From: Patescibacteria group bacterium
GTDB taxonomy: Bacteria > Patescibacteriota > UBA1384 > XYA2-FULL-43-10 > 1-14-0-10-43-13
Length of the DNA stretch: 64,000 nt
NCBI GenBank assembly: GCA_041649155.1
Contig: JBAZNP010000001.1
Location: 366,564 to 430,563 of the forward strand
Direction: 5' to 3'
Shown here: positions 953 through 57,929 of the stretch, in pieces
How positions within the stretch are numbered: position 1 is the stretch's first letter
Layout: each line of letters starts with the position of its first letter
The notes under the pieces: generated by a model
Database searches by the model: none
What the model was told of the DNA's origin: nothing
What the model saw: only the letters and a program-made list of their open reading frames with translations
Translations under genes and position numbers: made by a program

Positions 953-3900
953 ATGAAAAATTTTCTAAAAAATTTCTTAATCCTAACTATATGTTTTTCC
1001 ACTACTTTTGGGAATTATTTTGCATTTTTCACGCCCCAAAAGACATCAGCCGCAGAAACAACCACAGCAAAACAGGGTGATGGAGAGGCTTCGGAGACAC
1101 CGGATGATAGCAACTTGACAGACAAAGAGACTATCCCCATAGAAGCACAAACTTTAACACAGCATGTTTATAATAGCCAGATTAATACAAATGGGTTTGA
1201 GGATATTAATGACTTGTTTGCTTCTTCTTCAGACCCTAAAATCATTCTTAACGCCGATGATGCTTCTGCCGTGCGCTCACTCTCCTGCATGTCTTCTCTC
1301 ATACCGAACTTTGCGACTAATACTAAAAAACTTTTTGAAATTTTGCCCTCTTCTTCAAGGCCAAGTACCGAGGCAGAACTTTCTGCACTTAAGCTTAGCA
1401 ATTCTGATAAGTTTTATAGTCTGGTCTCACAAGCACAGAATATCTGGTACGAAAATAATGAGGGCTTTATATTAAATGACATGAGCACTTTGGAATGTTT
1501 ATCAGGTCTTTCTGCTAACGAAATTGTTGATTTAAGGGCAAGAGATCCACAGCAGTTAACAACAATCATCAATGATTCAAAAGAATCTCTTACAATCGAC
1601 ATAAGAGTCTTAAAAACACTAATCTACTTAGTCACCCCAAAAAATCAAGGTGGTGCCGGCCATTATAGAATAAAGGTAGCGCGCATAAGAACTGGTTACA
1701 CTTCAAAATCAAGGCAAACTTCCAGAGAGTCAAATTATATAGTGGATCAGCTCAACAGCAGCACTACAACAACCACAAGCAGCAGTGATCTTTCAGGGGA
1801 AACAGCTGCCGAAATCGGGATGAATCGGGACATCAGCAGTTCAGACTCATACGACTTAGACGGAACAAACGCAACAGCAATTGTTGAAGACGAAAATGGT
1901 GATGAGTATGATGCCTATATTAATGATCAGCTTCAAAATGAAGATGAATCTACCGATAGTAGCACAAGTAGCGATAAAACTGAAAAGAATATATCAGCTC
2001 ACTCTGAAGGAAAAGCTATTGATATCTCAGAAGTAGATGATATTCGATGTACATTAATCGAGAGAAAAAGAGTCGGACACACTAGCAAAACCAGTTATTC
2101 CCAAAGACCGATTAAACTAGCATGGCAAACACAAGAAGGCTATGCTGAGTCCGGAGGATATGACGGAGGCGATCTAGGCCAACTTTTTAAAGAATCTGCG
2201 TCAGACGAGATTAGAAGTCTGATCGAAGAACTGGGCGGAGATCCAAGTAATTATGATGGAGATCTTTCACAAGGAAACTTTTCCGACATCGTTCAGGTGA
2301 TAGGAAAATCATTATTCTCTCAAATTATCAATTCCCCTTCATCTAATTTCTCCGGTTACGATTTTCAAGATACTTTGCAAAAAATCGGCAGCGTGTATTT
2401 TGCTGATTTATTAGGTCTAGAAAAAGAAATTTTTGTAGATCAAGATATCACTTCCCTAGATGATCTTCAAAGAGTTGTTGGGCAAGCAGCGCTAGAAGAA
2501 CGCTTAAATCTTCCTTTCGGGACATTTACCGGCGACACGCTCGAAGACACTCTTCTAAATATCGGTCAGAGAAAAATTGAGTATGAAATGGGGCTAAATT
2601 CATCTTCTCTCAACAGTCTCTTAAATGACAATACGCAAAGTCTGCCCTTGATAGTCGGGGAAGCAGCAATAGAAAAAGCCCTTTCATTAAAAGAAGGATC
2701 TTTCACCGGCAATAGTTTCTCAGAACTCAAAAAGAATGTGGGTGAGATTAAAGGAAAAACGATATTCATCGATACAACCTATCCAGATAACATTCTCCAC
2801 CTTGACTCGGGGACAACAAACAAATTAGTATCCGGACAATTAAGCCCTATCGCCTACACAACGCTAGTTGGGCAAACAAGACTTGATGATACTGCATATG
2901 GATTTAAATATTTGTCGACCCATGAAAGTGCCTATAACTTACCGGAAGGCACTTGGTCCAATGCACTCTTGGGCAAAAAAGATGCCCTAAAAACCATCGG
3001 CGTAAATACGATCTCTAAAGCCTTTGCGACAGACGATGAACAACGGACTGCAATGGAAAAATGGCTCATCAGCAACACAGCAAAAAATTCGGATGATGAT
3101 TGCACCATAAACCTATATCCCGAAGTAAACATCACTGTTAAGGACGAAGATAAAACAGTTGCGATACTCGAAGATAATGCAATCGAAGCCGGGCTAGCTA
3201 CAGGAGATTTTTACAAAATGTTCGGTTGCGCAAAATCAAATCCGGCAAGCGTTTTTGAAAAAACCGGCAGCAAAATCCTTTATTATGCACTAGCCAATTA
3301 TGATTCAAGCTCAGAAGAAAAATTTAAGATTGATCTTATGGATACCAATTCGGAGTATAAACTTTTACAAAATGATCAGCTTGAATTTTATCTGCCCAGA
3401 ATTCAGGAAATGAATACTACTACAAACCGGATTACTAGTAACTGGGAAGACCAAAGTTCACAGTTAGATTATCAGCCTATCATGGCTTCTCTAAGTCATA
3501 TTAAAAGTATCGTCGGGGACTCAAAATATTATTCAAACAAAAACACTATCCAAACTGCCTCAAAAAAAATATCAATTGAAATTGGCATCTTAAAATCCAT
3601 ATTTGAAAAAGATCAAAAAGAACATCAGGAATTAAAAAATAAAATTAATTCAACACACATAGACATCAACAGGCTAACAACCTTATCAAGCGAAATACTA
3701 GAAGGAAGAATAGTCCCGTCAACTGAGAATATTCAATTAAGCCAAATACCCGCTTCAGGGCTTACCAGCGATGCCGAGCAGTACAGCGAATCTTCTTCAG
3801 CGTCAGGAAAAACAGGCAAGGTCGGCATAATGCTTCTCCTTGCAAGAAAAATCGATCCTAAAGACTTCTTTTTGTCCGTCGGAACGGACAAAACCGAGAC

Positions 3901-6900
3901 TGAGCTTAGTTTGCCTCAAAATTCACTTTATTATTACGTGCAGAATTTGGAGAAAAAGGGATTATCAGGTCAAGACGCTTTCTATCAATCGATCGGACAA
4001 GCCAAAATTGAAGAGGAATTCGGTATGCCTAGCTTCTATTTCCAAGGGTCTCTCTATAAGATAACCGACAAGCCAGATTTCCAGAACGATCTGGACTCGT
4101 TAATGAAATATAATGGATTCAACCAAGATGATAAACTCTATGATTCAACTAAAGACTATATTTTTCAGGCCAAAACAAAGAATGTAGGGGTATTTAACTA
4201 TTATGTTCAAAAAGCCGAAAACAAATACAGTGAAGGGCTCGCTAAGTATAAAAAAGAAATCAATACTGAAGGAAGCAGCAAAGTAGTCGAGAGCACCCTG
4301 AATGACCTGATTACAAATGTTAAAGCAAACGGATTAACCGACGGAATACGTTCGGCAGAAAATGATTTGCTATTTAGAATGGGAATAGCAGGAAATTTAC
4401 AATCCCTCATGAATGATAGTCCGATTGCCTGGAGTACAGCGAATAAGACCGCCAGTGAAATCGACAAGAAGCTATCTCTCGAAGACGGAACCACTAGATC
4501 TCTGTTTACCAGCAGCTTCGTCCCCTTAAACGACGGCAAAGACATTTTAGGTGAAAATGATAAAAAGATTGTTTCCGGCAAACTAGAAATAACAACAAGC
4601 GCAATCAATAAATATCTGGAAGCTTTAAATGGGGATATAGACCCAGATGATCTCACAACAGCAGGCCAGGAAATAACCTATAACTCTTCTAACCCCTACG
4701 CAGCAAAAACCGATGCTTCCACAGATAACTTGTGTACCAGCTTGTTTAATGCCAGCGACAACGGGATCTCCTTGTCAAAGCAATTCGTAAATGATTCTTT
4801 CTGGTTCAGAGACAAAGACGGAATAGTATTTGCCCAAAATCAGGAAAGCGCAAAACAACTAAGAGACCAAAATTCTGACAAAAAAATTACATTTCTAGAG
4901 GAAATTGCCATTGGATTAGCGAAAGTAACAGGGAAAAGCCAAAGTGAAGTTCAGAACGCTTTGTTGGCTTATCTCAAAAACGGCGGTCAGAAAACTCTGT
5001 TCAGCTTTTCTGACGAGCAGTACGAGGCGATGGAGAAAAGTTCAGGCATACCAAAAGACATTCTTCAGAAATTATTTGTACGTCAAAACGCTACCCAAAT
5101 CAACAATTCTCTCTCAGCTTACAAAAAAGCAGTCGGCCAAAGCACAGCTAAAAAAATTATAAATTATAAACTTTTCCAGGGACTAGGGGTGAGTCTAGAC
5201 TCTACTTCATTTGATTCTGACAGCCTATACGAAATAATGAACGGAAATTACAAACCTTTGTATGACATCGGGGCATTATTGATTGATAAAAAATTAAATC
5301 TGCCGACAGGAACGATCACGGATATAACTACGGCCAGCACACAAAAAATGAAAACCTGTGCTTTGGCGGAAGCCGGCGGCGGTATGCTGGGAGGATTAAT
5401 CGGCCTGAACTATGTATCAATGAAAGGCGACATCAGAACAAATCTCGGGCAATCAGTGATAGAAACAACTTTGAACTTGCCGCGAGGCACTTTTAAAGGA
5501 AATTCTCTCGACGAACTAGTTAAGAGCACTTCTCCCGTCAACTTTGTGCTCGGCTTCCAAATTCCAATAGAAGGGGTTGTGTCCAGCGATATAGTTCAGG
5601 GGATATTTGGCACAACTACTGCCAAAATGTCATCCAGCGACATTACTGACACGATGAAACTTAACCAAATTAAAAATTATCTTGAAGTAAAAAGTCTGTT
5701 ATCGAGCTCTGAAAGTAAAGCTGTCTCTAATTTAGACAACAAACTTGAAAGCCAAATCAAACTCATATCAAGCGATTCCTCTAAATGGACTACCAATTTT
5801 CAAAATCGTGTTAAGTTTTTGGACAACATCCTCGGGCTATCTGCCGACACGACAAAAAATATGCTTACGGGGGGGATCAGCCCGAATGCTTATCTGGACA
5901 TGGCAGCAGGCAAGTCGCTTCAAGGCATAGCGGCTCTTAACGTAATTAATATTTTCGACTTAGAAGAATACCAAAGTGCAGCAGCGATGAACTTGGTTAG
6001 AAACTTCGGATCGATGATAACCAATGGACAATATAATGATATCTACTCTTCTCTATCAGATGTATTTAATGTCAACTTGGACGCAAAAGCTGGATTTACC
6101 AAAGGGACAGCCTCTAATGTATTGGGAGACCCAAAAAATGCAGCAAAAATACTTCTGGCAGAAGGAATAAAAAAAGTCGACCAAAGTTTGGGCTTAGACT
6201 CAAATAGCGACACCTCCTTAACCAAGTTATATGATTATCAGCAAACAAATCTTGAGCAATGCAAGGCATCAATTTTACAACCAGAGCAAGAAGCTGCGCT
6301 GAAAGACGAGGAAATCCAACTTAAATTGCCAAACTTGACCACAAATAATGATGCGAGATTAGCCGAGATATCAAACACAAGATCCACCGCTAACCAGAGC
6401 TACAATGATTGCAAAACGCAATCCATAGAAGAAGCCACAACTTCATCCCATCTCATATTCAGAACTGCAGTGAACGATAAAATTTCATCCGCAATATCCA
6501 ACAAGATTTCTGAAATTACACAGGGCACTATTATTATGCCGAAAGAAGATGTCAGCAACTTCATTAAAAACGGCGATATGAAATATTTCGAAACAATAGG
6601 ATTGGCATATGCAGCAAACATAGTATTAAACAAAGCGGGCAATAACGAACTTGTGCCTCCAGGGATGAGGATAACCTATAAAGATTTATATCTGGCAACT
6701 TTCGGCGATAGAAACGCTGAAGCAAGTGCCGGAGATGCAGCTGTTTACGCCGATGTAAACAATATAACCTACTCTGACTTCAATACTCCGTACAGATACG
6801 GCGACGTTTGTGGCACGCTTGGAAGCATAGGTTGCCTTAATGCTGATAGCTACTTGAGCATGGATTCTTCCAGTGCATTGCCTCGAGACGAAAGTCAACT

Positions 6901-8431
6901 TGTGGCAGCTAATCAGGCTTCGACAAACGCTATGTACGGCTACAACCCAAGTGACGCGGCTACTGTTAGCACTGCTAGTTCCAAATACCAGACCAAATAC
7001 GGAGACAATCTAACTATCGCCAATAGCGATCAATGTAAACAGGATCCAATGTCTGAAACATGTCAAAAAGCTGCAGGCGCTTTAACCAATCTTAACAGTG
7101 TAAAGGGTGAAGCACGACAAAAATCGAGACAAACTTTTATCGACGACCTAAAGTACAAAACGACCGACGCTCTTCTCTGGAATCTTGATAAGAACGTCTA
7201 CCCCGGACTTAGTTACGCCCTCTTAAGGGGAGATGCGACAGTAAAGCAAAACGCTATGGCCAACTACATACGAAACGGCATTATGAGAGGGGAACTTTTT
7301 GGCATCGATATTAGTTCTAGATTAAAAAATGTCGGGGAATGGATTAACACTTATGATACTTTTTCCGATCTTACATCAGCAGTATCAAACGGGGGGTTAG
7401 ACAGCTTTTTCCAATCAGGCGGCGGTTATACTGCTCTTAATGACTTCGTCAACAATAACTCAAAGAACTGGTTTGGCTTTGATATGCCGGAAAATATGCT
7501 TGGAGGCTTGACCGTCGGTTTATCTACGGGCGTTTGGGACGCTAGCAAATTAGACCTCTCAGATTCAAGACTTATTAAATTTGATGGAGGGATTTATAAA
7601 GGCACAAACGGTAAATTACAGATACCTACCATGACCCAGATTGGCAAAAATTTACTGAACGATAAAATAACAGATCTAAAAAATGGTTTGGAAGGTAAAT
7701 TGTTCTCTTGGACCGACAAAATTCTTGGATGGGACTCAGGAACGGCTTATCAAACATACCAAGCATATGAGAATGTTCAAAAAGCCAGAGAAGCATATAT
7801 AAACATTAAAGATATTTCTGGAGCAGCTAAAGCAAAAGCAGCAGCAGATTATGATGCAGCCAAAGCTCAATTAATTACATTCGTAGTCACTACAGTTTTT
7901 TCAAAACAGATAGCTGCAGCAGAAGAATCACTTGGTTTGGTTTCAGGGACAGGCTCAATGCTTGCAACGATGCTTATCACTGGTTTCAACCCCATAGGCT
8001 TGATTACGTTTGTCGGAATGAATTTATTTATGGTTTATAAGGTAGAGCTAAAATGTAGCGCGGATGGTTATTATCCAGAAATGCAGGCCGGAACTTCTTC
8101 AAATGTGGTTGATGTAACAGGATTGGGAGTATGGAACGGGATGAGTCAAGAAACCTCAAAAAAGAAGTCCATTGAAGCGGCCCAGTATAAAGCAAGCCGA
8201 TTGATCGGAGACGTACTGTCAATGCAGGACAGCCCTAAATACGCCGACGTAATTCCAAGTCAGATTATGACTGGACGACAAGAGGATGTTGATTTATGGG
8301 ACCCTGCAATCACATATTACCTATGCTCAAAACTCGGCAACACTTCTATAAAGGGAATTTGTGGAGGAAATACAAGAGCTGGAGTGTGGGAGAATCCACA
8401 AACAGTAGCTCTGACACATATAGGATTTTAG
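953..8431 (+). CDS. Giant (2492 aa) secreted/surface protein. N-terminal signal peptide, Ser/Thr/Asp-rich low-complexity segments, internal LNLPxGT repeats, an SAHSEGKAID (SxHxxGxAxD) motif, and two C-terminal TM helices followed by a Cys-containing tail
   Basis: Single uninterrupted 7479-nt ORF. Signal-peptide-like N-terminus MKNFLKNFLILTICFSTTFG. Hydrophobic helices near residues 2290-2340. Terminator hairpin plus T-run at 8578-8604. Confidence 0.75.
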   Translation: MKNFLKNFLILTICFSTTFGNYFAFFTPQKTSAAETTTAKQGDGEASETPDDSNLTDKETIPIEAQTLTQHVYNSQINTNGFEDINDLFASSSDPKIILNADDASAVRSLSCMSSLIPNFATNTKKLFEILPSSSRPSTEAELSALKLSNSDKFYSLVSQAQNIWYENNEGFILNDMSTLECLSGLSANEIVDLRARDPQQLTTIINDSKESLTIDIRVLKTLIYLVTPKNQGGAGHYRIKVARIRTGYTSKSRQTSRESNYIVDQLNSSTTTTTSSSDLSGETAAEIGMNRDISSSDSYDLDGTNATAIVEDENGDEYDAYINDQLQNEDESTDSSTSSDKTEKNISAHSEGKAIDISEVDDIRCTLIERKRVGHTSKTSYSQRPIKLAWQTQEGYAESGGYDGGDLGQLFKESASDEIRSLIEELGGDPSNYDGDLSQGNFSDIVQVIGKSLFSQIINSPSSNFSGYDFQDTLQKIGSVYFADLLGLEKEIFVDQDITSLDDLQRVVGQAALEERLNLPFGTFTGDTLEDTLLNIGQRKIEYEMGLNSSSLNSLLNDNTQSLPLIVGEAAIEKALSLKEGSFTGNSFSELKKNVGEIKGKTIFIDTTYPDNILHLDSGTTNKLVSGQLSPIAYTTLVGQTRLDDTAYGFKYLSTHESAYNLPEGTWSNALLGKKDALKTIGVNTISKAFATDDEQRTAMEKWLISNTAKNSDDDCTINLYPEVNITVKDEDKTVAILEDNAIEAGLATGDFYKMFGCAKSNPASVFEKTGSKILYYALANYDSSSEEKFKIDLMDTNSEYKLLQNDQLEFYLPRIQEMNTTTNRITSNWEDQSSQLDYQPIMASLSHIKSIVGDSKYYSNKNTIQTASKKISIEIGILKSIFEKDQKEHQELKNKINSTHIDINRLTTLSSEILEGRIVPSTENIQLSQIPASGLTSDAEQYSESSSASGKTGKVGIMLLLARKIDPKDFFLSVGTDKTETELSLPQNSLYYYVQNLEKKGLSGQDAFYQSIGQAKIEEEFGMPSFYFQGSLYKITDKPDFQNDLDSLMKYNGFNQDDKLYDSTKDYIFQAKTKNVGVFNYYVQKAENKYSEGLAKYKKEINTEGSSKVVESTLNDLITNVKANGLTDGIRSAENDLLFRMGIAGNLQSLMNDSPIAWSTANKTASEIDKKLSLEDGTTRSLFTSSFVPLNDGKDILGENDKKIVSGKLEITTSAINKYLEALNGDIDPDDLTTAGQEITYNSSNPYAAKTDASTDNLCTSLFNASDNGISLSKQFVNDSFWFRDKDGIVFAQNQESAKQLRDQNSDKKITFLEEIAIGLAKVTGKSQSEVQNALLAYLKNGGQKTLFSFSDEQYEAMEKSSGIPKDILQKLFVRQNATQINNSLSAYKKAVGQSTAKKIINYKLFQGLGVSLDSTSFDSDSLYEIMNGNYKPLYDIGALLIDKKLNLPTGTITDITTASTQKMKTCALAEAGGGMLGGLIGLNYVSMKGDIRTNLGQSVIETTLNLPRGTFKGNSLDELVKSTSPVNFVLGFQIPIEGVVSSDIVQGIFGTTTAKMSSSDITDTMKLNQIKNYLEVKSLLSSSESKAVSNLDNKLESQIKLISSDSSKWTTNFQNRVKFLDNILGLSADTTKNMLTGGISPNAYLDMAAGKSLQGIAALNVINIFDLEEYQSAAAMNLVRNFGSMITNGQYNDIYSSLSDVFNVNLDAKAGFTKGTASNVLGDPKNAAKILLAEGIKKVDQSLGLDSNSDTSLTKLYDYQQTNLEQCKASILQPEQEAALKDEEIQLKLPNLTTNNDARLAEISNTRSTANQSYNDCKTQSIEEATTSSHLIFRTAVNDKISSAISNKISEITQGTIIMPKEDVSNFIKNGDMKYFETIGLAYAANIVLNKAGNNELVPPGMRITYKDLYLATFGDRNAEASAGDAAVYADVNNITYSDFNTPYRYGDVCGTLGSIGCLNADSYLSMDSSSALPRDESQLVAANQASTNAMYGYNPSDAATVSTASSKYQTKYGDNLTIANSDQCKQDPMSETCQKAAGALTNLNSVKGEARQKSRQTFIDDLKYKTTDALLWNLDKNVYPGLSYALLRGDATVKQNAMANYIRNGIMRGELFGIDISSRLKNVGEWINTYDTFSDLTSAVSNGGLDSFFQSGGGYTALNDFVNNNSKNWFGFDMPENMLGGLTVGLSTGVWDASKLDLSDSRLIKFDGGIYKGTNGKLQIPTMTQIGKNLLNDKITDLKNGLEGKLFSWTDKILGWDSGTAYQTYQAYENVQKAREAYINIKDISGAAKAKAAADYDAAKAQLITFVVTTVFSKQIAAAEESLGLVSGTGSMLATMLITGFNPIGLITFVGMNLFMVYKVELKCSADGYYPEMQAGTSSNVVDVTGLGVWNGMSQETSKKKSIEAAQYKASRLIGDVLSMQDSPKYADVIPSQIMTGRQEDVDLWDPAITYYLCSKLGNTSIKGICGGNTRAGVWENPQTVALTHIGF

Positions 8432-8999: not shown

Positions 9000-10073
9000 C
9001 TACTCTCTACTTGCTTTAATCTCAATAACTTTTGATTTTTTTAATAATTCCGGCGATAGATGGTCTGCTTCTGTTGAAGTAATTAGAGTTTGATACTGAG
9101 ACACAAGCTCGCCTAAGTGAGACCGCCTCTCCGGATCAAATTCAGAGAAAATATCATCCAAAAGAAGTATTGGTTTATCCATATCTTCCCCCGCTGCTAG
9201 ACCTTGTTCTTTAATTTTTTCCATATATTTAAGCTCAGAAATCTTCAGTGCCAGAATAGCAGATCTAATTTCTCCCCTCGAGGCAAAATTAGCCATGTTG
9301 CGGCCGTTCAACTCAAATACTACATCATCACGATGCGGGCCAACAAGGGATCTTCCGGAAGATATTTCCCTATATCTAAGTCGGTCTAAAACATCAGCTA
9401 AATCACCTTCAAAATTCTGACAATAAATCATTTTAAGATCCGCACCAAAATCACCAGAAATAGATCTGTAAAGATCAGGTAAAAATTCATTTATTTCATC
9501 AGCAGCCTTTTTTCTTCTCTTAATTATCAACTCTCCAAACTTGACCAGCTCCTTATCCCAAAAACTCATCTCCTGCTCGCTTGCCTGTCTTTTATTTATT
9601 CTTTGTAATAAATTATTTCTCTGTTGTTTAACTTTTTTATAACTGACTAAAGCTTCTAGATATTCTCTATCAACCTGACTTATCATTACGTCTAAAAATC
9701 GGCGTCTATCTGAAGGCGAACCGGAAATTATCGAAATAGTCTCTGCAGAAAAAACAACTGTGGGTAAAATTCCGACAAAGTTAGACAATTTTCGAACCAC
9801 TCCTTTTTCTTTAGCCTGCATGAAAAGGCGCGGCGTTCTGGTTAAAAAAATTTCCAGATTGTCCCCGCTTATTCTCGCATAATCAGAATTAAAATTAATC
9901 AAATTTTTCTTGTCATCTTCGCGAAATGAACGGCAGAAAGAAAGTAGAGCCACTGCCTCTAAAATATTACTTTTGCCAGCGCCGTTTAGCCCGACTAAAA
10001 CAGTGACCTGATCAAAATCAATTTCAAATTTCTGATGATTGCGAAAATTTTCTAGTTTAAGTCTTTTAAACAC
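9000..10073 (-). CDS. recF: DNA replication and repair protein RecF
   Basis: N-terminus MFKRLKLENFRNH...VLVGLNGAGKSNILEA (Walker A). 357 aa. Synteny dnaA-dnaN-recF. Confidence 0.9.
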   Translation of the reverse strand: MFKRLKLENFRNHQKFEIDFDQVTVLVGLNGAGKSNILEAVALLSFCRSFREDDKKNLINFNSDYARISGDNLEIFLTRTPRLFMQAKEKGVVRKLSNFVGILPTVVFSAETISIISGSPSDRRRFLDVMISQVDREYLEALVSYKKVKQQRNNLLQRINKRQASEQEMSFWDKELVKFGELIIKRRKKAADEINEFLPDLYRSISGDFGADLKMIYCQNFEGDLADVLDRLRYREISSGRSLVGPHRDDVVFELNGRNMANFASRGEIRSAILALKISELKYMEKIKEQGLAAGEDMDKPILLLDDIFSEFDPERRSHLGELVSQYQTLITSTEADHLSPELLKKSKVIEIKASRE

Positions 10074-10110
10074 AGCTTACCAAATTCTAAATTGAAAATT
10101 TTAAATTAAT

Positions 10111-39899: not shown

Positions 39900-41222
39900 A
39901 TGACTCAAGAAACTAAAAATAATTTCGTATTTATACTTGGTAGAGAACAAGAAATTGCTTTGGCGGAGCTCAAAGCAGTTTTGGGTAGGTTTGGTTTTTA
40001 TTTTGATATTTATAAGATAACTGGAAACCAAGTCTTTGCCAATATTGACAATTTTACAGTAAGTGATGCGGTCAAAGTAATGGATGCTCTGGCCGGTACT
40101 ATTAAAATATATAAATTAGAAGGCCTCATAGAAAAAGATATTGCTGCACAAATTGTCTCGTTATTTCGTCTTCATAAAGTGAACGGCGAAGGTAAAATAA
40201 ACTTTGCAATTTCTTATTTTGGCAGGGGATTTTCAAGGCAGAACATCAATTCTATCGCTTTAACTGCTAAAAAGCAGCTCAAAAGTGATTTTAGTCTAAG
40301 GTACGTCGAATCCAGAGATTCTGCTGAGCTCAGTTCGATTCTATCGTTGAAAAATAATCTTGCGACTAAGGGTATCGAATTCGGGCTTTTTGATAATGAA
40401 ATTGGGATTTTAGTAGCGCTCAATAATCCGGAAGAGTGGTCAAAAAGAGATTACGACAAACCGGCATCTGACAAATTTTCCGGAATGCTACCGCCAAAAC
40501 TTGCTCGCATGATGATCAACCTTGCATTGGGTGAATGCAAGGAAATTACAAATGGATTAGAAATTAGAAATTTGAAATTAGAAATTCCACAGCACGAAGT
40601 GCTTGTCGCTGATCCTTTTTGTGGTTCTGGCAATGTTTTGATGGAAGCAATGATGTTGGGGCATGATGCGATTGGTAGTGATATATCGGAGAAAGCAGTT
40701 GAAGACACAAAAGCCAATATTGAATGGCTAAAAAATCAGAATACAGATAACAGAATACAGATAACAGTTTTTCAAGCGGATGCCACTAGTGAAGAATATA
40801 TTAAAAAACTGACAACTAGTCACAAAAACCTAGTTTTTGTGACTGAGCCTTACTTGGGCGAGCCTAAGAAGTATAAGCCAACGTACAATGCAGCAGCAGG
40901 CGAATATTCAAAAATCAAAGAGCTCTATCTCAAGTTCCTTGAGAATATTGCTGTATTGTCAAATTGCTATATTACTAATAGTTCAAAATCAGAACCTGGC
41001 TTGCCAAACAATAAAACAATAAAACAATATAACAATTGCATCTTGTGTCTTGTTTTTCCTCTCGTTGAAACGATTGAGGGCAGGAGATTTAGCCTTTTTA
41101 AGGCGAGTGTTGACGAAATCAGAGAATTAGGCTATACTCAATCTTGTCCAACTATGGTTTATGGGCGCGATTATCAAGTTGTCAAAAGAGAAATAGCCTT
41201 GCTCAAATTCGAGCAAATTTAA
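39900..41222 (+). CDS. SAM-dependent methyltransferase, UPF0020/THUMP-associated family (RlmKL/Trm11-like) candidate
   Basis: Motif I LVADPFCGSGNVLMEA. Contains an in-frame copy of the ACAGATAACAG motif at 40741-40768. Confidence 0.5.
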   Translation: MTQETKNNFVFILGREQEIALAELKAVLGRFGFYFDIYKITGNQVFANIDNFTVSDAVKVMDALAGTIKIYKLEGLIEKDIAAQIVSLFRLHKVNGEGKINFAISYFGRGFSRQNINSIALTAKKQLKSDFSLRYVESRDSAELSSILSLKNNLATKGIEFGLFDNEIGILVALNNPEEWSKRDYDKPASDKFSGMLPPKLARMMINLALGECKEITNGLEIRNLKLEIPQHEVLVADPFCGSGNVLMEAMMLGHDAIGSDISEKAVEDTKANIEWLKNQNTDNRIQITVFQADATSEEYIKKLTTSHKNLVFVTEPYLGEPKKYKPTYNAAAGEYSKIKELYLKFLENIAVLSNCYITNSSKSEPGLPNNKTIKQYNNCILCLVFPLVETIEGRRFSLFKASVDEIRELGYTQSCPTMVYGRDYQVVKREIALLKFEQI

Positions 41223-41241
41223 AATTCTTACGGAGTAAGTC

Positions 41242-41538
41242 ATGGCACATAAAAAAGCTGCCGGTAGTACAAGATTGGGTAGAGATTCAAGAGCACAGCG
41301 CTTAGGCGTGAAGATTTTTGGTGACCAATTAGTTACAGCAGGCGGAATCATCATAAGACAGCGCGGAACTAAATATCATCCAGGCAAGAACGTTGGAATC
41401 GGTAAAGACGACACTTTATTTGCTTTGATTTCCGGTCTTGTTAAGTTTCAACACAAAAAAGTAACTGCATTCACAGGGAATAAAGACAAAAGAGTTTTTG
41501 TTGATGTTGAGCCAGTAGCAGAAAAGCAGGAGAAATAA
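41242..41538 (+). CDS. rpmA: 50S ribosomal protein L27 (with C-terminal extension)
   Basis: [16 protein letters not shown]...[19 protein letters not shown]. Confidence 0.9.
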
Positions 41539-42035
41539 TGGAAAAAATTCTTGAAAAATATGCTAAAAAAAATATTCCTGAACTAAAATCCGGAGATACT
41601 GTTCGTGTTCACCTTAAGGTTAAAGAAGGCAGCAAAGAAAGAGTACAGATTTTCGAAGGCCTAGTTATTGCAACTAAGCATGGAACAGGTCTTGATGGAA
41701 CTTTCACCGCTAGAAAAGAATCTTTTGGTGTTGGCGTTGAGAGAACTTTCCCAATTCACAGCCCCCGAGTTGTTAAGATTGAAAGAGTAAAACAATCAAA
41801 AGTTAGAAGAAGCAAACTATATTATATGAGAGAGCTTTCAGGCAAAAACGCTCGTCTTAAAGAGCTTAATCGAGATCACAAAGTTTGGGAAGAAGGCGCA
41901 GCCGAAGAAGAGCTAAAGAAAATCGCTGAAGAAAAAGCAAAAGAAGCAGCAGCAATTGAAGCAAAGAGAAAAGCAGAAGAGGAAGAACTAGAGCGAAAAG
42001 CCAAAGCTTTGGCAGGCGACAGAATAAAAAAGTAA
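41538..42035 (+). CDS. rplS: 50S ribosomal protein L19 with K/E/A-rich C-terminal tail
   Basis: ...GDTVRVHLKVKEGSKERVQIFEGLVIATKHGTG...; 165 aa versus the usual about 115. Confidence 0.85.
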   Translation: MEKILEKYAKKNIPELKSGDTVRVHLKVKEGSKERVQIFEGLVIATKHGTGLDGTFTARKESFGVGVERTFPIHSPRVVKIERVKQSKVRRSKLYYMRELSGKNARLKELNRDHKVWEEGAAEEELKKIAEEKAKEAAAIEAKRKAEEEELERKAKALAGDRIKK

Positions 42036-42043
42036 TATAAGTT

Positions 42044-42072
42044 GTCATTCCCGTGAAGACGGGAATCCAAGA
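42044..42072. repeat. Family H hairpin repeat (gtcattcccgtgaagacgggaatcc)
   Basis: Sequence. Confidence 0.6.
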
Positions 42073-42107
42073 TAGTCAATATTCAGAATACAGATAGCAG
42101 CTAAAAA

Positions 42108-42135
42108 AATGCCCCAATAAACAGGGCATTTTTTG
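42108..42135 (+). terminator. Rho-independent terminator after rplS (aatgccc-caataaaca-gggcatt + T5)
   Basis: Hairpin plus T-run. Confidence 0.5.
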
Positions 42136-42202
42136 TAATAGATAATTTTGCTTTTGAATCCCTTTTGTACCCCATTTGACACCCTTTTGTTATAATGAAG
42201 CC

Positions 42203-42721
42203 ATGTTATCCCATCAAAATCCCCTTGGCTATCGATATCTCCGCACTTGGCAGCAAGCCAATGAAATTTTTGAATTGACAGAGAAATTTATTACAACTTT
42301 GCCGCTTCGCCATCCTGAAACAGGCCAATATTTAACAGATTTGAAAGACCAGATGATTCGATCGGCCAGAAGCGTAGTCCGCAACATCGAAGAGGGCTAT
42401 GTTCGAACATCGACCAAGGAGTATATTTCATTTCTGGGCTTTTCAGCCGGATCTTTAGAGGAGTTAATCGGCGATTTTAAATATTGCCAAAAGGGAAACA
42501 TAGGGGATCCAAAAGGATGCGCAAAAGGGATACAAATGGGGGTGGGCGAAGCTAAAATGCTTGACCGGCAAATTAAAAGTCTGGAGGAGAAAACATTTAA
42601 TGAAAAGACCGCTTCCCAAAGTGACATGATCAAAAAATCATGGTCTGGACAGAAGAAAATTGAGGACGATTTCGATAAGAAGCTTCAAGATATTATAGAC
42701 GGCAAGAGAAAGAGCTTATGA
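42203..42721 (+). CDS. Four-helix-bundle protein (TIGR02436-type). Start re-called at M10. TATAAT at 42190-42195 suggests a leaderless transcript
   Basis: YRYLRTWQQANE...SARSVVRNIEEGYVRTSTKEYISFLGFSAGSLEEL. Confidence 0.6.
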   Translation: MLSHQNPLGYRYLRTWQQANEIFELTEKFITTLPLRHPETGQYLTDLKDQMIRSARSVVRNIEEGYVRTSTKEYISFLGFSAGSLEELIGDFKYCQKGNIGDPKGCAKGIQMGVGEAKMLDRQIKSLEEKTFNEKTASQSDMIKKSWSGQKKIEDDFDKKLQDIIDGKRKSL

Positions 42722-43080
42722 TTTTTGATAAGACGAAAAACAAATCGACCGGCAATATGGGGGAGGATTTGGCGGCGGAATATTTGATAAAAAATAAATA
42801 TAAAATTCTTGGTCGTAATATTAATATTAAAGTCGGCGAGATCGACATATTGGCCGACGATCGAGGTACAATTGTGATTGTGGAGGTGAAAACAGTACGA
42901 GGGAGTGGTTTCGGCCTTGCTCAAGAATTGGTTCGTTTTAAAAAGCAAAACAAGCTCAAATTGCTGGCACGAGCATTGACTCAGAAGTATCCCAATAAGA
43001 CTATTCGGATCGATGTGATAGGCGTCGATTATTCGTGTGGCGAACCCAAAATCGAGCACATTATAAATGCAGTTTACTAA
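42718..43080 (+). CDS. yraN: YraN family (UPF0102) endonuclease
   Basis: GEDLAAEYL...ILGRNI...GEIDILADD...IVIVEVKT. Confidence 0.8.
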   Translation: MIFDKTKNKSTGNMGEDLAAEYLIKNKYKILGRNINIKVGEIDILADDRGTIVIVEVKTVRGSGFGLAQELVRFKKQNKLKLLARALTQKYPNKTIRIDVIGVDYSCGEPKIEHIINAVY

Positions 43081-43134
43081 TATTTTTAATGCGGTAAACC
43101 CACGATCGTCCATTTTTAGATTAACTTTTTAATA

Positions 43135-43178
43135 AAAAAATCCCCCGCCGGTTAAGGCGAGGGCGGTGGGCTCAGTTA
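43135..43178 (-). terminator. GC-rich hairpin with T-run on the minus strand; probable terminator of the GC-rich gene pair and possibly bidirectional
   Basis: ccgcc/ggcgg stem followed by tttttttatt on the minus strand. Confidence 0.35.
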
Positions 43179-43208
43179 TATGTTAGAGAGATACTGTGAA
43201 TGACAAGC

Positions 43209-43637
43209 TTAGCAACTGGGGCGGCGGTGAGCTATGGCCCATTTGGCTTGCTTTCTCACTTCTTCAACGCTGGTCTCTTCGGACCATGGAGTATCGGTAT
43301 AGAGTTCCCAGACATCGTTGTAATCATCGAGAGGCCTCTCGATGCCTAAGGTAACTGCCGTTCCGCTCAATCCAGGTCTAATGTAGAGCAGCTTCCAGGT
43401 ATACCCACGAAAGTGGATCACGGTGGTATCGAATTTTACTCTTGAGATTGCTGTCTCTGAAGGTATGACCTCTGCAATTTCATTCTCATTTGCGGGTTGA
43501 TGATAGTAGCTGCGTTTGGAGCGGTTCTCTGGTTTGTCTGTGTGGGTTTCAGTTAAGCATAGAACGATGTAGCTCCTGATTTGTCCCCATGTAGTGATTG
43601 CTATTAGCTCCTTTTCCGTGCTCTGTTTGTTGTCCAT
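43209..43637 (-). CDS. Hypothetical protein in a GC-rich island
   Basis: 142-aa ORF; about 50-55% GC versus about 33-35% background. Confidence 0.45.
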   Translation of the reverse strand: MDNKQSTEKELIAITTWGQIRSYIVLCLTETHTDKPENRSKRSYYHQPANENEIAEVIPSETAISRVKFDTTVIHFRGYTWKLLYIRPGLSGTAVTLGIERPLDDYNDVWELYTDTPWSEETSVEEVRKQAKWAIAHRRPSC

Positions 43638-43640
43638 TTG

Positions 43641-44069
43641 CTAGCCAGCCTCCTTTTTGTTTGAATTTGGGTTCGGTGATAGCAGAATAAATCTCTCTTC
43701 GACGTAAATGACATCTTTGTATCGGTAGTCAGAAAAAGGCATTTTGGGTAAGATACCTTTTTTACCTTTGTTCTGAAGGCTGACCAGCCATTTGTCGATA
43801 GTTGATTCGTCGCCAAGAGCATAATCAGCCAAAGCTTCTCGCATTTCTTTTTTTTCGCTCTCGTCCAGAGAAATCGTAGGTAGGCATTTAACAACTTCTT
43901 TTAATGCCCAATAGGTTGTTTCTTGACCACAGTCCTTGAAGCTCATTTTGTCCTCCACTTTTGCTTTTTCGATTTTTTTCGCCTTTTGTACTATCGGAAT
44001 GATAATGCCGAAAACAACCGCCATTAAAATTAAGAGACTTGCGCCAAACTCCAAAGGCTTGTTTTCCAT
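43641..44069 (-). CDS. Hypothetical N-terminally membrane-anchored protein in a GC-rich island
   Basis: 142-aa ORF, single N-terminal TM, 4-nt overlap arrangement with the downstream gene. Confidence 0.45.
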   Translation of the reverse strand: MENKPLEFGASLLILMAVVFGIIIPIVQKAKKIEKAKVEDKMSFKDCGQETTYWALKEVVKCLPTISLDESEKKEMREALADYALGDESTIDKWLVSLQNKGKKGILPKMPFSDYRYKDVIYVEERFILLSPNPNSNKKEAG

Positions 44070-44274
44070 TTATTTTCTCCTTGTGTAGGTGCTTGAAAGT
44101 CGAGAAGATTGCCACGCTGTGCTCGCAATGACATTAATCAGCTTGTCGAGCGATACTTTAGCATTAATCCAAATATTTGTCAATAATATAAATACAACAA
44201 TAATAAAAAATTAATCTTAAATTATGATAATATTGACATATTGTAGTTAAAATTGATACAACATAATTAACCAA

Positions 44275-45030
44275 ATGAAAGAAGAACAAATATTAAAATA
44301 TCTGGCTAATTTCGGACTCCGCCCGCTCGAGGCAGCGGTTTATTTGACGATTTTGAAATTAGGCCAATCAACTGTAGGGAAGATTAGTCAAGAGTCGAGC
44401 ATTCAGAGGACTTTTGTCTACGACCTTTTGCATGAGTTGCAAGAAAAAGGCTTGGTTTCATGCGCAGAAGTAAGAGGAGTAAAGAACTTCAGTGCGATAT
44501 CCTTTGCCAGCTTTAAAAGGTTGCAGGAAAACAAAGTAAAAAGATTTGAATCGATCTTGCCAGAGTTACTTTTATTCGAAAAAAGTGTAGGCGATCGGCC
44601 AAAAATCACAATGTATGAAGGCAGGGATGGTTTGGCTGCTGCCCAATATGATACCTTGCAGTTTCCTAATTCTGAAATTTCAGCTTACGCGGCCGCTGAG
44701 GGTCTATATTATGACGAACCAGGTTTTGCGAAAAATTATATCAAAGAAAGAGTGAAAAATAATATTCGGGTGAGGGCGATTTGTCCGGATTCGGAGCTGC
44801 TTCGGCCGTACGTTGAACGCAATAAAGCTGAGCTGAGAATTTCGAGGACTGTGCCGGCTGGTCAATTCCCTTTTACGAATGAAATTGATATCTATGGCAA
44901 TAAAGTGGCAATCTTATCTTATACGGGAGAGCTTTTAGCGGTCATTATCGAATCAGAAAGTGTTGCCAGAACTCAAAGGATGATTTTTGAGTTGGCATGG
45001 TTGGGAGCGGGGAAATTTAACAAGAGCTAA
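44275..45030 (+). CDS. TrmB-family HTH transcriptional regulator
   Basis: N-terminal wHTH ...LEAAVYLTILKLGQSTVGKISQESSIQRTFVYDLLHELQEKGLV. Confidence 0.6.
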   Translation: MKEEQILKYLANFGLRPLEAAVYLTILKLGQSTVGKISQESSIQRTFVYDLLHELQEKGLVSCAEVRGVKNFSAISFASFKRLQENKVKRFESILPELLLFEKSVGDRPKITMYEGRDGLAAAQYDTLQFPNSEISAYAAAEGLYYDEPGFAKNYIKERVKNNIRVRAICPDSELLRPYVERNKAELRISRTVPAGQFPFTNEIDIYGNKVAILSYTGELLAVIIESESVARTQRMIFELAWLGAGKFNKS

Positions 45031-45161
45031 TTGGCTATTGCAAAGTCTTGATATAATTGGGATAAAGTTATATAATCGTTTGGCTTAATAATAGCCCCAG
45101 TTAGATGGCCCTGATGGGGCATCAAACGGGGCAAGGAGGATGGATGGAAAAGGAGAAAAAA

Positions 45162-45488
45162 ATGAGAAAAGTTGCAACCGGTTTTATTGAATTTATAAGA
45201 AAACAAGGGGTTGTCGGGTTGGCTGTTGGTTTTGTCTTGGGCGGATCAGTTTCCAAACTGGTAACAGCTCTTGTTAACGATATTATTAATCCTCTGATCG
45301 GGATTTTGTTAGGTAGAGCAAAAGATTTAGCTAGTTATTCAATCAAGATTGGTGGAACTGAATTAATGTGGGGAGATTTTGCCAGTCAATTAATTGACTT
45401 CATCACTATTGCACTGGTTGTTTACGGTGCTTTTAAAATTTTACAGCTGGATAAGCTAGATTTGAAGGAAGAAAAGGCTAAGAAGTAA
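45162..45488 (+). CDS. mscL: Large-conductance mechanosensitive channel. Start re-called at M20 (SD AAGGAG at 6 nt)
   Basis: MRKVATGFIEFIRKQGVVGLAVGFVLGGSVSKLV. Confidence 0.8.
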   Translation: MRKVATGFIEFIRKQGVVGLAVGFVLGGSVSKLVTALVNDIINPLIGILLGRAKDLASYSIKIGGTELMWGDFASQLIDFITIALVVYGAFKILQLDKLDLKEEKAKK

Positions 45489-45540
45489 AATTTCAATATA
45501 CGAACTTTCTTTTTTTCGTGTTTTGCGATAGATTAAAGGT

Positions 45541-46965
45541 ATGATTAGAACAAGATTTGCACCGAGTCCAACAGGGGAACTTCATATTGGCGGAGCCAGA
45601 ACCGCTCTTTTTGCTTATCTTTTCGCAAAGTCACAGGGCGGGGAATTTTTACTTCGAATTGAAGATACTGACCGAAATCGCTATGTTGAGGGATCAGTCG
45701 AGCGCATTATTGAATCATTGAAATGGCTTGGAATTAGTCCTGACAACCGCAAAAATATTATGGTCCAGTCAGAACGCCTGCCGGAGTATAAAAATGCAGC
45801 CTTGAAGCTTCTGAAAGAAAATAAGGCATATATCTGCACTTGTTCTAAAGAAAGACTGGATGGTTTGCGGAAAGAGCAGGAAGCAAAGAAACTTCCTACT
45901 GGATATGATGGACATTGTCGCAGTGGAAAGTGGAAAGTAGAGAGCAAAAAGGATTTAGAGGAATATTTGTCAAAAGGGGCGGTTGTGCGGATGAAAATGC
46001 CGGAAAAGGGCAAGATTGCTTTAAGCGACCTGATTCGAGGTAAAGTTGAGTTTGATGCTTCACTTATTGATGATCAGGTTATATTGAAATCAGACGGATA
46101 TCCAACTTACCATCTGGCTTCAATAGTTGATGATCACGAGATGAAAATTACTCATGTTGTTCGTGCCGAAGAATGGCTTTCTTCAACTCCGAAACATTTA
46201 ATTTTATATGAAATGTTTGGCTGGAAAGCGCCTGAATTTGCTCATTTATCCATGATATTGGGACCGGACAAAAAGAAACTTTCTAAACGTCATGGTGCAA
46301 CTAGCGTGATGCAATACAGAGAAGAAGGATATTTGCCTGAAGCATTGGTTAATTTTCTTGCATTTTTGGGCTGGAATCCAAAGGACGAGCGGGAAACATT
46401 TTTAATGGAAGAATTAATTAAAGAATTTAAGTTAGAAAACGTTAATAAGGCGCCGGCGATATTCAATATTGAGAAATTGGATGATATTAATGAGAAATAT
46501 ATTCGCAAAGTTGTCAGTCATCAGTTGTCAGTTGTCAGTCCGCTGCTAAAAGAATTTGGAGTAGAAGATATTTCGGTTGGAGAGTTGGAATTAATTGGTC
46601 GTGGTGGATATTCAACCTTGAAGCAGGCCGCGGAATATATTTTAGAGCTTAGAAAAGAGCCTGAATATGATGGAAAAATGCTGGTATTTAAGAAGTCGAC
46701 AAAAGGAGCAACACTTCTTGGTTTGCAGTCAGCAGTTTGCAGTTTGCAGAATATTGAGGAAAATGATTGGAATTCTCAGGAACTACAGATGAAATTGGGG
46801 TTGGTTGTTGAAAGAACCAATCTGACTAACGGGGATGTTTTCTGGCCAATTCGGGTTGCTTTGTCGGGTCAGGAAAAATCTCCAAGTCCGGTTGAGCTTC
46901 TTGTTGCGTTGGGAAAAGAAGAAAGCTTAAAGCGGATAAAGAAGGCTGTTAAGAAATTGAAGTAA
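45541..46965 (+). CDS. gltX: Glutamate--tRNA ligase
   Basis: MIRTRFAPSPTGELHIGGARTALF (HIGH motif), KLSKR motif. Contains in-frame 7-mer microsatellite tracts at 46501-46530 and 46721-46750. Confidence 0.9.
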   Translation: MIRTRFAPSPTGELHIGGARTALFAYLFAKSQGGEFLLRIEDTDRNRYVEGSVERIIESLKWLGISPDNRKNIMVQSERLPEYKNAALKLLKENKAYICTCSKERLDGLRKEQEAKKLPTGYDGHCRSGKWKVESKKDLEEYLSKGAVVRMKMPEKGKIALSDLIRGKVEFDASLIDDQVILKSDGYPTYHLASIVDDHEMKITHVVRAEEWLSSTPKHLILYEMFGWKAPEFAHLSMILGPDKKKLSKRHGATSVMQYREEGYLPEALVNFLAFLGWNPKDERETFLMEELIKEFKLENVNKAPAIFNIEKLDDINEKYIRKVVSHQLSVVSPLLKEFGVEDISVGELELIGRGGYSTLKQAAEYILELRKEPEYDGKMLVFKKSTKGATLLGLQSAVCSLQNIEENDWNSQELQMKLGLVVERTNLTNGDVFWPIRVALSGQEKSPSPVELLVALGKEESLKRIKKAVKKLK

Positions 46966-47000
46966 AGCACTAATTGTTATATTGCTAAATTGTTGAATTG

Positions 47001-48451: not shown

Positions 48452-48525
48452 TCGGAGATCGTATAATGGTAGTACAACGGGTTCTGGTCCCGTTTATCTA
48501 GGTTCGAATCCTAGTCTCCGAACCA
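48452..48525 (+). tRNA. tRNA-Gln (anticodon CTG), CCA encoded
   Basis: tcggaga/tctccga acceptor, loop ttCTGgt. The 5' 11 nt are duplicated at 48395-48405. Confidence 0.75.
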
Positions 48526-57395: not shown

Positions 57396-57470
57396 TGGTA
57401 GCGCCAAGGGGAATCGAACCCCTGTTACCGCCGTGAGAGGGCGGCGTACTAGCCTCTATACGATGGCGCC
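57396..57470 (-). tRNA. tRNA-Glu (anticodon CTC), CCA encoded
   Basis: Reverse complement ggcgcca.../tggcgct acceptor; loop ctCTCac. Confidence 0.75.
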
Positions 57471-57602: not shown

Positions 57603-57929
57603 TTATTGTTGTGCGATGCTACCTAGCAGGCTACTTTGTTCAAGACGACGTTTTGCTTTTTGAATTCCCGAGTAAGAAAAATCAAATCCTTCGATGCGCG
57701 CTCCTAGCGGAATGAGCTTGTCTGCCTCTTTTCTCGGTCCTACGACTAAATGTTGCTTTCCTGCAATGTTATAGTGTATCACCGCTATCTCTTGTGTCTG
57801 CGTGCATGCTACTTTTTTGTTGCTCACCTTGGTCACCCTCCCAGCTTCCATGCTTGGAAGCAGAATCACGAGACAAACACTTGGGTGTTGCTGCACTTGT
57901 CTCGTCATTTCTGCCTGCAGTATTCTCAC
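57603..57929 (-). CDS. Hypothetical small protein in a GC-atypical segment beside tRNA-Glu (low confidence; could be non-coding)
   Basis: 108-aa ORF. Local GC clearly above background. Several hairpins in the region. Confidence 0.25.
   Translation of the reverse strand: MRILQAEMTRQVQQHPSVCLVILLPSMEAGRVTKVSNKKVACTQTQEIAVIHYNIAGKQHLVVGPRKEADKLIPLGARIEGFDFSYSGIQKAKRRLEQSSLLGSIAQQ

Follow-up and report, generated by a model that had tools for sequence, protein, structure and literature searches.

A small accessory operon in a core-flanked, probably exchangeable slot beside a TrmB-like regulator in a Patescibacteria genome

The 64,000-nt stretch of a Patescibacteria metagenome-assembled genome (MAG) analyzed here, referred to in its entirety as the window, carries on its minus strand a small operon of two genes, ORF A and ORF B. 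We regard it, with moderate confidence, as an accessory operon occupying a slot that is flanked by core genes and replaceable by recombination, whose changing gene content (the cargo) is placed behind a promoter that is conserved along with the neighbouring gene for a TrmB-like regulator. This reading is founded on the anatomy of the operon, the variability of the slot among relatives, the conservation of the frame around it, the membership of ORF B in a distinctive protein family and the pattern of base composition. An earlier examination of the letters of this DNA (the original prediction) had described the two genes as a uniformly foreign, GC-rich pair, of the kind that holds toxin/immunity, defence or host-interaction cargo.

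Anatomy of the operon and its flanks

ORF A and ORF B are arranged as a single operon: a promoter-like site and a leader precede ORF A, ORF B comes next after a gap of 3 nt, and an intrinsic terminator closes the series (Table 1). Both reading frames are present where the original prediction placed them. Their junction reads ...TAG CAA ATG... on the minus strand, with an AGGAGG sequence within the end of ORF A; hence the two genes are separated by a short spacer and do not overlap as had been supposed. Intergenic alignments show that the -35 element of the cargo promoter is kept in the related loci L002, L003, L005 and L018. The 5' untranslated leader folds no better than shuffled sequence (z = +1.1). 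The TTGACA that had earlier been assigned to the leader of the operon does exist, at 44233-44238, but it lies on the plus strand and constitutes the conserved -35 element of the promoter of the TrmB-like gene; the operon has a promoter-like site of its own with a distinct TTGACA. The GC-rich hairpin with a T-run noted in the original prediction is recovered as a rho-independent terminator on the minus strand, which is to say a G+C-rich stem-loop with a U-tract located 3' of the ORF B stop on the coding strand. Its stem (43163-43142; CCCUCGCC-UUAACC-GGCGGGGG) has eight pairs, seven of them G-C, and is followed by AUUUUUUUAUU; the hairpin lies 45 nt past the stop codon of ORF B, is kept in the centroid fold and is unique in the window.

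Table 1. The operon and its immediate neighbours in the window
Feature	Position	Strand	Properties
23S_rRNA_IVP four-helix-bundle protein	42176-42721	+	PF05635, E = 8e-14; convergent with the cargo
UPF0102/YraN protein	42718-43080	+	convergent with the cargo
Intrinsic terminator	43131-43163	-	8-bp stem, 6-nt loop, U-tract
ORF B	43209-43637	-	142 aa; cytoplasmic; uncurated small-protein family; outlier in GC and codon usage
ORF A	43641-44069	-	142 aa; N-terminal membrane anchor; lysine-rich, mostly helical C-terminal part
Ribosome-binding site (RBS) AAGGAG of ORF A	44077-44082	-	7 nt ahead of the ATG
5' untranslated leader of the cargo operon	44083-44154	-	about 75 nt; conserved with L002
Promoter-like site of the cargo	44155-44183	-	TTGACA (44183-44178), 17-nt spacer, TAAAGT (44160-44155)
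Promoter-like site of the TrmB-like gene	44233-44262	+	TTGACA, 18-nt spacer, TACAAC
TrmB-family helix-turn-helix (HTH) regulator	44275-45030	+	PF01978, E = 9e-14; divergent from the cargo

The frame around the cargo consists on the left of rpmA and rplS followed by the genes for the IVP and YraN proteins, the latter two being the neighbours already named in the original prediction, and on the right of the TrmB-like gene, mscL and gltX. The promoter of the TrmB-like gene falls within the most conserved intergenic block (TGTCAATAT ... TTGTATC in the minus-strand reading), and a short conserved palindrome, ACAATATGT, overlaps its -35 element and could represent an operator. No integrase or transposase gene occurs between rplS and gltX, the nearest tRNA gene lies at 48452, and a search of the window against Rfam returned only tRNAs.

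The end of the TrmB-like promoter is only 12 nt before the ATG (window 44233-44277), with no Shine-Dalgarno sequence in between, and the regulator mRNA may thus be leaderless. On the other side of the slot, a 23-nt motif with CAGAATACAGATA(A/G)CAG occurs as a tandem pair inside a methyltransferase-like gene (40731-40767) and once in the spacer between rplS and the IVP gene (42078-42100).

The match of the left-flank gene to PF05635 raises a specific alternative, as this family is related to Avd, the accessory protein of diversity-generating retroelements (DGRs), and as genomes of the candidate phyla radiation (CPR) are rich in DGRs: ORF A or ORF B might be the target or the cargo of a retroelement, or of another mobile element, tied to the Avd-like IVP gene. 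However, all ORFs of the neighbourhood are accounted for without a reverse transcriptase gene, there is no template/variable pair or long repeat within 40000-47000, and in the related locus L001 the IVP gene is absent while a homologue of ORF B is present. Given the missing reverse transcriptase and repeat pair this link is effectively refuted, and we consider it almost certainly incorrect.

Gene content of the slot in related genomes

Relatives were retrieved by anchoring on the TrmB-like protein, whose identity to the window version is 85% in L002, 80% in L003, 67% in L004, 60% in L005 and L006 and 57% in L018. Each of the closest relatives is represented by one short contig from a metagenome, and the GTDB representatives that were scanned exclude the genome of the window. 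The TrmB-like gene and the bidirectional promoter block are kept in L002, L003, L004, L005 and L018 (alignments A6 and A8). By contrast, the genes behind the divergent promoter differ: where the window has ORF A and ORF B, L002 encodes a 201-aa protein with a faint ankyrin match and a 158-aa protein of what we call family X, L004 proteins of 143, 182 and 55 aa, L018 proteins of 181 and 245 aa, and L005 a 62-aa transmembrane protein and a 146-aa protein, along with several more genes, yraN and a second TrmB among them. Among five relatives the cargo proteins have no detectable similarity to one another although the flanking DNA is 69-74% identical. The single exception concerns family X: the L002 protein is similar (E about 1e-8 to 4e-10) to the one encoded in L001 just ahead of the homologue of ORF B. 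Thus, conserved flanks enclose unrelated content in related genomes, which is one mark of a core-flanked variable hotspot.

The limits of the variable part are sharp. In blastn comparisons of the window with L002, homology is continuous from 45009 to 44076, through the TrmB-like gene, the intergenic region and the leader, and stops at the RBS, with AAGGAG forming the last bases common to both. There is no similarity across the cargo, and a 35-nt match of 86% then appears at 43163-43129, corresponding to the terminator, which in L002 stands behind a different gene. As homology breaks at precisely these points, the coding content appears to have been replaced exactly between the RBS and the terminator. 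On the opposite side of the slot, rplS or the IVP gene is found in L001, L004 and L005. In L001 and L008 the family X gene, followed by the ORF B homologue and a terminator, is directly convergent with rplS (the encoded protein being 83% identical to that of the window), and both the IVP and YraN genes are missing; L004 possesses IVP without YraN, indicating that these two genes are variably present among the relatives.

Two further observations concern the surroundings of the slot in this clade. In L003 the gene after the TrmB-like gene, in place of mscL or gltX, encodes an IS200/IS605-type Y1 transposase (L003:1053-1490), which implies mobile-element activity right beside the locus. In L005 the interval between rplS and TrmB (L005:1387-7396) spans about 6 kb and nine genes, among them a glucosamine-6-phosphate isomerase-like gene, a second TrmB paralogue, a DUF4325 gene, yraN and a gene whose product is ASCH-like by eye, from which it follows that the slot can expand greatly.

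Base composition of the cargo

The original prediction had placed the two genes in an abrupt island of 50-55% GC within a genome of about 34% GC. The window as a whole measures 38.5% G+C and the segment 43130-44100 43.9%, a value reached by just 1.8% of 971-nt windows; accordingly the contrast was overstated, even though the 60-nt example offered for it (33 G+C at 43201-43260) is accurate. The shift in composition is real, modest and due to ORF B alone. With 47.8% GC, a level met by 0.2% of 429-nt windows, and a third-position G+C (GC3) of 52.4%, ORF B stands at the top of the 63 ORFs of the window (z = 2.7 and 3.1, respectively), whereas ORF A, at 40.1%, is ordinary. The excess of ORF B is greatest at the third position of codons, where it has 52% and the host genes average 35% (z = 3.1), and its second-position G+C (GC2) is also elevated, at 43%. 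Log-odds scoring of codon usage, with 37 host genes as the training set (mean 0.274, standard deviation 0.054), separates the two genes in the same manner. ORF A scores 0.332, in keeping with native usage, and its other five frames score -0.18 or lower; ORF B scores 0.073, which is under the minimum of the 37 host genes, yet is the best among its own six frames. ORF B is therefore compositionally foreign and ORF A compositionally native. The segment as a whole does not depart strongly in G+C and codon usage, ORF B being the sole outlier, and of the proposed two-gene shift there remains a small one confined to a single gene.

The second most GC-rich ORF of the window (57603-57929, minus strand; 46.2% GC, 108 aa) is without a Pfam match and adjoins a tRNA-Glu gene (57396-57470). 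Either a further small gene of foreign origin or a spurious reading frame would be a possible explanation.

A comparable discrepancy between cargo and host is seen elsewhere. In low-GC relatives the cargo has 45-53% GC against flanks of 36-48%, while at the high-GC locus L012 it has 55% against flanks of 59-64%. Across ten loci the GC3 of ORF B-family genes follows host GC3 only weakly, with a slope of 0.38 and a mean absolute deviation of 14 points: in six of the hosts with less than 50% GC3 it exceeds the host value by 6 to 26 points (a seventh, L014, is at par), and in three hosts of more than 60% it falls short by 3 to 17 points. This departure from the host at most of the loci, and in both directions, suggests horizontal movement; the pattern would fit repeated transfer from a pool of about 50% GC, or might alternatively reflect a gene-specific constraint. 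GC-biased gene conversion was also considered as the source of the high cargo GC, and is disfavoured because the cargo of L012 is GC-poorer than its flanks.

The ORF B family

The products of the pair are identical to two NCBI entries for hypothetical proteins, WC536_02165 and WC536_02170, which derive from a Patescibacteria group bacterium MAG and its contig of 798,787 bp. ORF B has a single close homologue, P0002 in L001, with 66% identity. The two genes are 71-74% identical at codon positions 1 and 2 and 39% identical at position 3, with pN of 0.256 and pS of 0.864 (saturated). The lower pN and the concentration of divergence at third positions indicate that ORF B is a real gene evolving under purifying selection.

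An exhaustive comparison by HMMER of a two-sequence profile (ORF B and P0002) with 1.84 billion representatives recovered 63 of them at E<=1e-3, 15 of these at E<=1e-10. The family is defined by alignments A4 and A5, and a 16-sequence subset was used to scan the collections. Nearly all members are 100-190 aa long, with a domain of about 110-145 aa that is typified by the motifs (F)NVLCVTKR, WH.PI.G.A, V.F.G, R.GL.G.A and WELYTDTP and by a C-terminal helix with IRE.A..I. These motifs are generally invariant or nearly so, and the stretch W110-P117 is invariant in alignment A5; ORF B displays its own versions (VLCLTET, YH, RPGLSGTA, WELYTDTP), which mark it as a member. Library searches with 29 family members gave no meaningful match in Pfam or PHROGs, those with ORF B and two other members gave none in NCBIfam, and the family profile found none among PDB sequences. 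Likewise, neither the phage and plasmid collections, searched by tblastn, nor the viral contigs that were scanned yielded a match, and a literature search on the family motif and on TrmB in Patescibacteria found nothing. By eye WELYTDTP is similar to YHEYTVITP, a motif of RNase Sa-type ribonucleases, but its conserved Arg and Glu follow each other the opposite way round and PDB sequences give no hit; the likeness is therefore discounted. Taken together, the sequence comparisons characterize the ORF B family as an uncurated and undescribed group of small cytoplasmic proteins with a sparse but wide distribution.

The genomic contexts of the family are diverse. In L012, L013 and L009 (host GC about 60%) a TrmB gene diverges from an uncharacterized gene of 160 aa, behind which the family member stands convergent with dnaN-dnaA. 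In L007, a Patescibacteria MAG of 51% GC, a TrmB-like fragment and four unknown genes precede a family member convergent with rpmA. In L011 (48% GC) a TrmB gene lies about 3 kb upstream of the family member, in L016 (37% GC) a 152-aa unknown gene overlaps the family gene, and in L015 and L017 (45-47% GC) the family gene is solitary. Where partners are present upstream, they are mutually unrelated. Four independent lineages (the window; L012/L013/L009; L011; L007) thus have a TrmB-family gene no more than about 5 kb away from a member of the ORF B family, a recurrence that is suggestive only. In two proteins, P0135 (335 aa) and P0139 (232 aa), the ORF B domain is C-terminal to unrelated N-terminal regions, and neither protein has a Pfam domain.

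The 335-aa fusion is encoded in L014 (38% GC), within a long operon that comprises uncharacterized genes and one for an AAA ATPase. This run (L014:5339-12702) consists of about ten co-directional genes, almost none with a Pfam match and with the AAA ATPase in last position, and has a weak MazE-like match nearby; it may represent an uncharacterized multi-gene system or an integrated element. In L019 (host genes 61% GC) the family member P0138, a 190-aa protein with a hydrophobic C-terminal extension, adjoins a Mutator-family transposase (L019:7001-8887). Other genes of that contig match PEP-CTERM and TPR models faintly or encode a guanylate-cyclase domain. Given these genes and a GC content of about 61% this genome is probably not CPR, and the ORF B family would therefore not be confined to Patescibacteria.

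ORF A and the case for a conflict module

ORF A is a lineage-specific, membrane-anchored orphan with native composition. The membrane anchor recognized in the original prediction is borne out by one strong transmembrane helix at residues 9-27 (Kyte-Doolittle hydropathy 2.72), and AlphaFold2 (AF2) run on ORF A alone places a helix at 5-38; judged by the positive-inside rule, most of the protein, C-terminal to this helix, probably faces the cytoplasm. In a search of 5.8 billion clustered proteins ORF A matched only itself, and phage and plasmid collections and viral contigs gave no match. The earlier statement that neither ORF has recognizable motifs is likewise upheld, with nothing significant for either protein in Pfam, PHROGs, PADLOC, NCBIfam or PDB sequences. 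A relationship of ORF A to family X was considered and rejected (BLASTP E = 0.14; hhalign probability 0.2%), a suggestive MAFFT alignment being left unsupported.

Two small, tightly coupled genes in a variable slot call to mind a conflict module (toxin-antitoxin, toxin-immunity, abortive infection or anti-phage), in which ORF A would be the effector or anchor in the membrane and ORF B would partner it from the cytoplasm. Genes of the ORF B family often have, immediately upstream, partners of about 150 aa that are not homologous to one another (L012, L016, L001), and the fusions in P0135 and P0139 and the one member beside a Mutator-type transposase point in the same direction. In PADLOC-DB v2 the best matches of ORF A are to NsnC (E = 0.0071) and KwaA (E = 0.0093), both of 14 bits; yet these are not significant and span the transmembrane segment, and ORF B has no match at all. 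No type II toxin-antitoxin (TA) fold emerges either, there being no toxin family, and ORF A has a transmembrane anchor and not a HTH, ribbon-helix-helix or AbrB domain or any other known antitoxin domain. Nor is there obligate co-occurrence: ORF A is without homologues, the upstream genes elsewhere are unrelated, and the family genes of L015 and L017 are solitary, which argues against an obligate toxin-partner pair. Further, the neighbourhood is devoid of defence genes, and there are no phage, plasmid or viral-contig matches. The toxin/immunity, defence or host-interaction cargo envisaged in the original prediction hence finds no significant counterpart in these collections, and with purely architectural features in its favour we hold a conflict module to be improbable.

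Exchange versus vertical inheritance

The remaining explanation is that both are ordinary, vertically inherited and fast-evolving hypothetical genes, that the GC content of ORF B results from its amino-acid composition or from chance, and that the relatives differ through loss and divergence. The original prediction had itself named vertical synteny of the pair across relatives as the observation that would speak against it, and part of this is seen, since in L001 the 66%-identical homologue is found on the corresponding side of the slot, adjoining rplS and convergent with it. This position leaves room for vertical inheritance within a sub-clade, in which case the high GC3 of ORF B needs a gene-specific cause. 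The native codon usage of ORF A, the raised GC2 of ORF B and the lack of mobility genes and bounding repeats are also in line with vertical descent, as is the abundance of small orphan genes in CPR genomes. Nevertheless, the excess of ORF B is largest at third codon positions, its codon score falls below those of all 37 host genes, its family departs from host composition in both directions elsewhere, five relatives have dissimilar cargos despite the similarity of their flanking DNA, and the homology breakpoints against L002 are sharp. On balance we regard plain vertical inheritance as unlikely, albeit the most serious of the competing explanations.

Several other points weigh against an exchangeable slot and need to be set beside the evidence for it. 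Since the closest relatives are short contigs, each cargo set has been seen once, and some of the loci are incomplete. There are no bounding repeats at the slot and no mobility gene in the slot of the window, and the rplS-side position of the L001 homologue has to be counted here too. With ten loci, the regression of GC3 reaches p = 0.09. The proximity to TrmB applies to 4 of about 9 lineages, with a rough p of about 0.05 (given one TrmB per about 60 window genes), and the TrmB proteins of those lineages are only about 26% identical. Lastly, the AF2 models of ORF A and ORF B (the latter from a 2-sequence alignment) reach predicted local distance difference test (pLDDT) scores of 53 and 35, which is below usable quality.

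Relationship to known systems

The closest known concept is that of hotspots for accessory or defence genes between core genes, together with flexible genomic islands of the replacement type; Pseudomonas aeruginosa, with its core defence hotspots (PMC10250203), and E. coli, with its repertoire of hotspots and defence islands (PMC10121019), provide examples. As in these, a fixed position between core genes receives unrelated, atypical accessory genes in relatives, and the slot is without an integrase or transposase inside, which makes homologous recombination in the flanks the natural mechanism. The slot in the window differs in being tiny (about 0.9 kb, two genes), in having a conserved frame that reaches inward to the promoter, leader, RBS and terminator, and in holding cargo that matches no known defence system; moreover, its host is a Patescibacteria MAG and its variability is known from single metagenomic contigs.

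The second point of comparison is with divergent gene pairs of the TrmB family (PF01978), in which regulator and operon similarly share a compact, conserved bidirectional promoter region. As in such regulator-target pairs, a short palindrome lies over the regulator's own -35 element. Characterized TrmB proteins control genes for sugar transport or metabolism, whereas here the putative target genes appear to differ from genome to genome and are without assigned function.

The third is with type II TA and polymorphic toxin-immunity cassettes, with which the locus shares two small, translationally close genes, a patchy distribution reminiscent of horizontal transfer, and a conserved small domain that has variable partners and is occasionally fused to unrelated N-terminal regions. 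It differs from them in that neither protein has a detectable toxin, antitoxin or immunity domain, the upstream gene encodes a membrane-anchored protein with no DNA-binding domain, the ORF B family is frequently solitary, and secretion or trafficking domains are absent.

Other features of the window

The window includes a replication-origin neighbourhood (9000-14622) with recF (9000-10073), dnaN (10111-11214) and dnaA (11839-13362), all on the minus strand, a GIY-YIG protein gene (13744-14085) and rnpA (14233-14622). The minimum of the cumulative GC skew and a trough of 27% GC coincide at about 11.5-12 kb. The ORF A/ORF B pair is located about 31 kb from the skew minimum, on the strand opposite to most of the neighbouring genes. 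On the plus strand, 953-8431 is a giant ORF of 2492 aa with no Pfam match at E<=1e-3; giant proteins without assigned function are common in CPR genomes.

Proposed mechanism and implications

The above observations on the slot, its frame and its cargo can be combined into a mechanism for an exchangeable accessory operon. The slot would be bounded by rpmA-rplS (with or without IVP and YraN) on one side and by the TrmB-like regulator followed by gltX on the other, with the cargo transcribed from the conserved promoter directed away from the gene for the regulator. Content would most likely be exchanged by homologous recombination in the conserved flanks, such that the frame stays fixed and the cargo is replaceable. 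The cargo would be drawn from what appears to be a horizontally shared pool of about 45-55% GC. ORF B would have come from a horizontally circulating family of small proteins and retained its non-host composition, and ORF A may tether it to the membrane or act as its partner there. The conserved intergenic block and the palindrome point to a TrmB-like protein that probably autoregulates and also controls the divergent cargo promoter. These features would accommodate the part of the original prediction that saw here a site for cargo, in the sense of an accessory slot with unrelated genes behind a kept promoter in five relatives and with defined breakpoints against L002.

A more far-reaching version is that the TrmB-like regulator, bidirectional promoter, leader, RBS and terminator make up a fixed "expression frame" that serves as an integrase-free landing pad, into which recombination would bring unrelated cassettes of small genes. 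ORF B would then belong to a new, horizontally mobile family of small domains, occurring alone or as C-terminal fusions and acting in conflict between microbes or with phages, and ORF A would be its lineage-specific partner anchored in the membrane. We give this version a small chance of being correct.

Should the interpretation as an exchangeable accessory operon fail, what is left would be two hypothetical genes with a mild fluctuation in GC content. If it is correct, the locus would provide a small and cleanly delimited case of CPR genomes keeping a place for exchangeable accessory genes; to our knowledge these ultra-small genomes lack most of the classical machinery of mobile elements. It would also define the uncurated WELYTDTP family, which to judge from its composition has moved among hosts with 37-62% GC and which is a candidate for structural and functional work, and the conserved flanks could be used for mining CPR metagenomes for more cargo.

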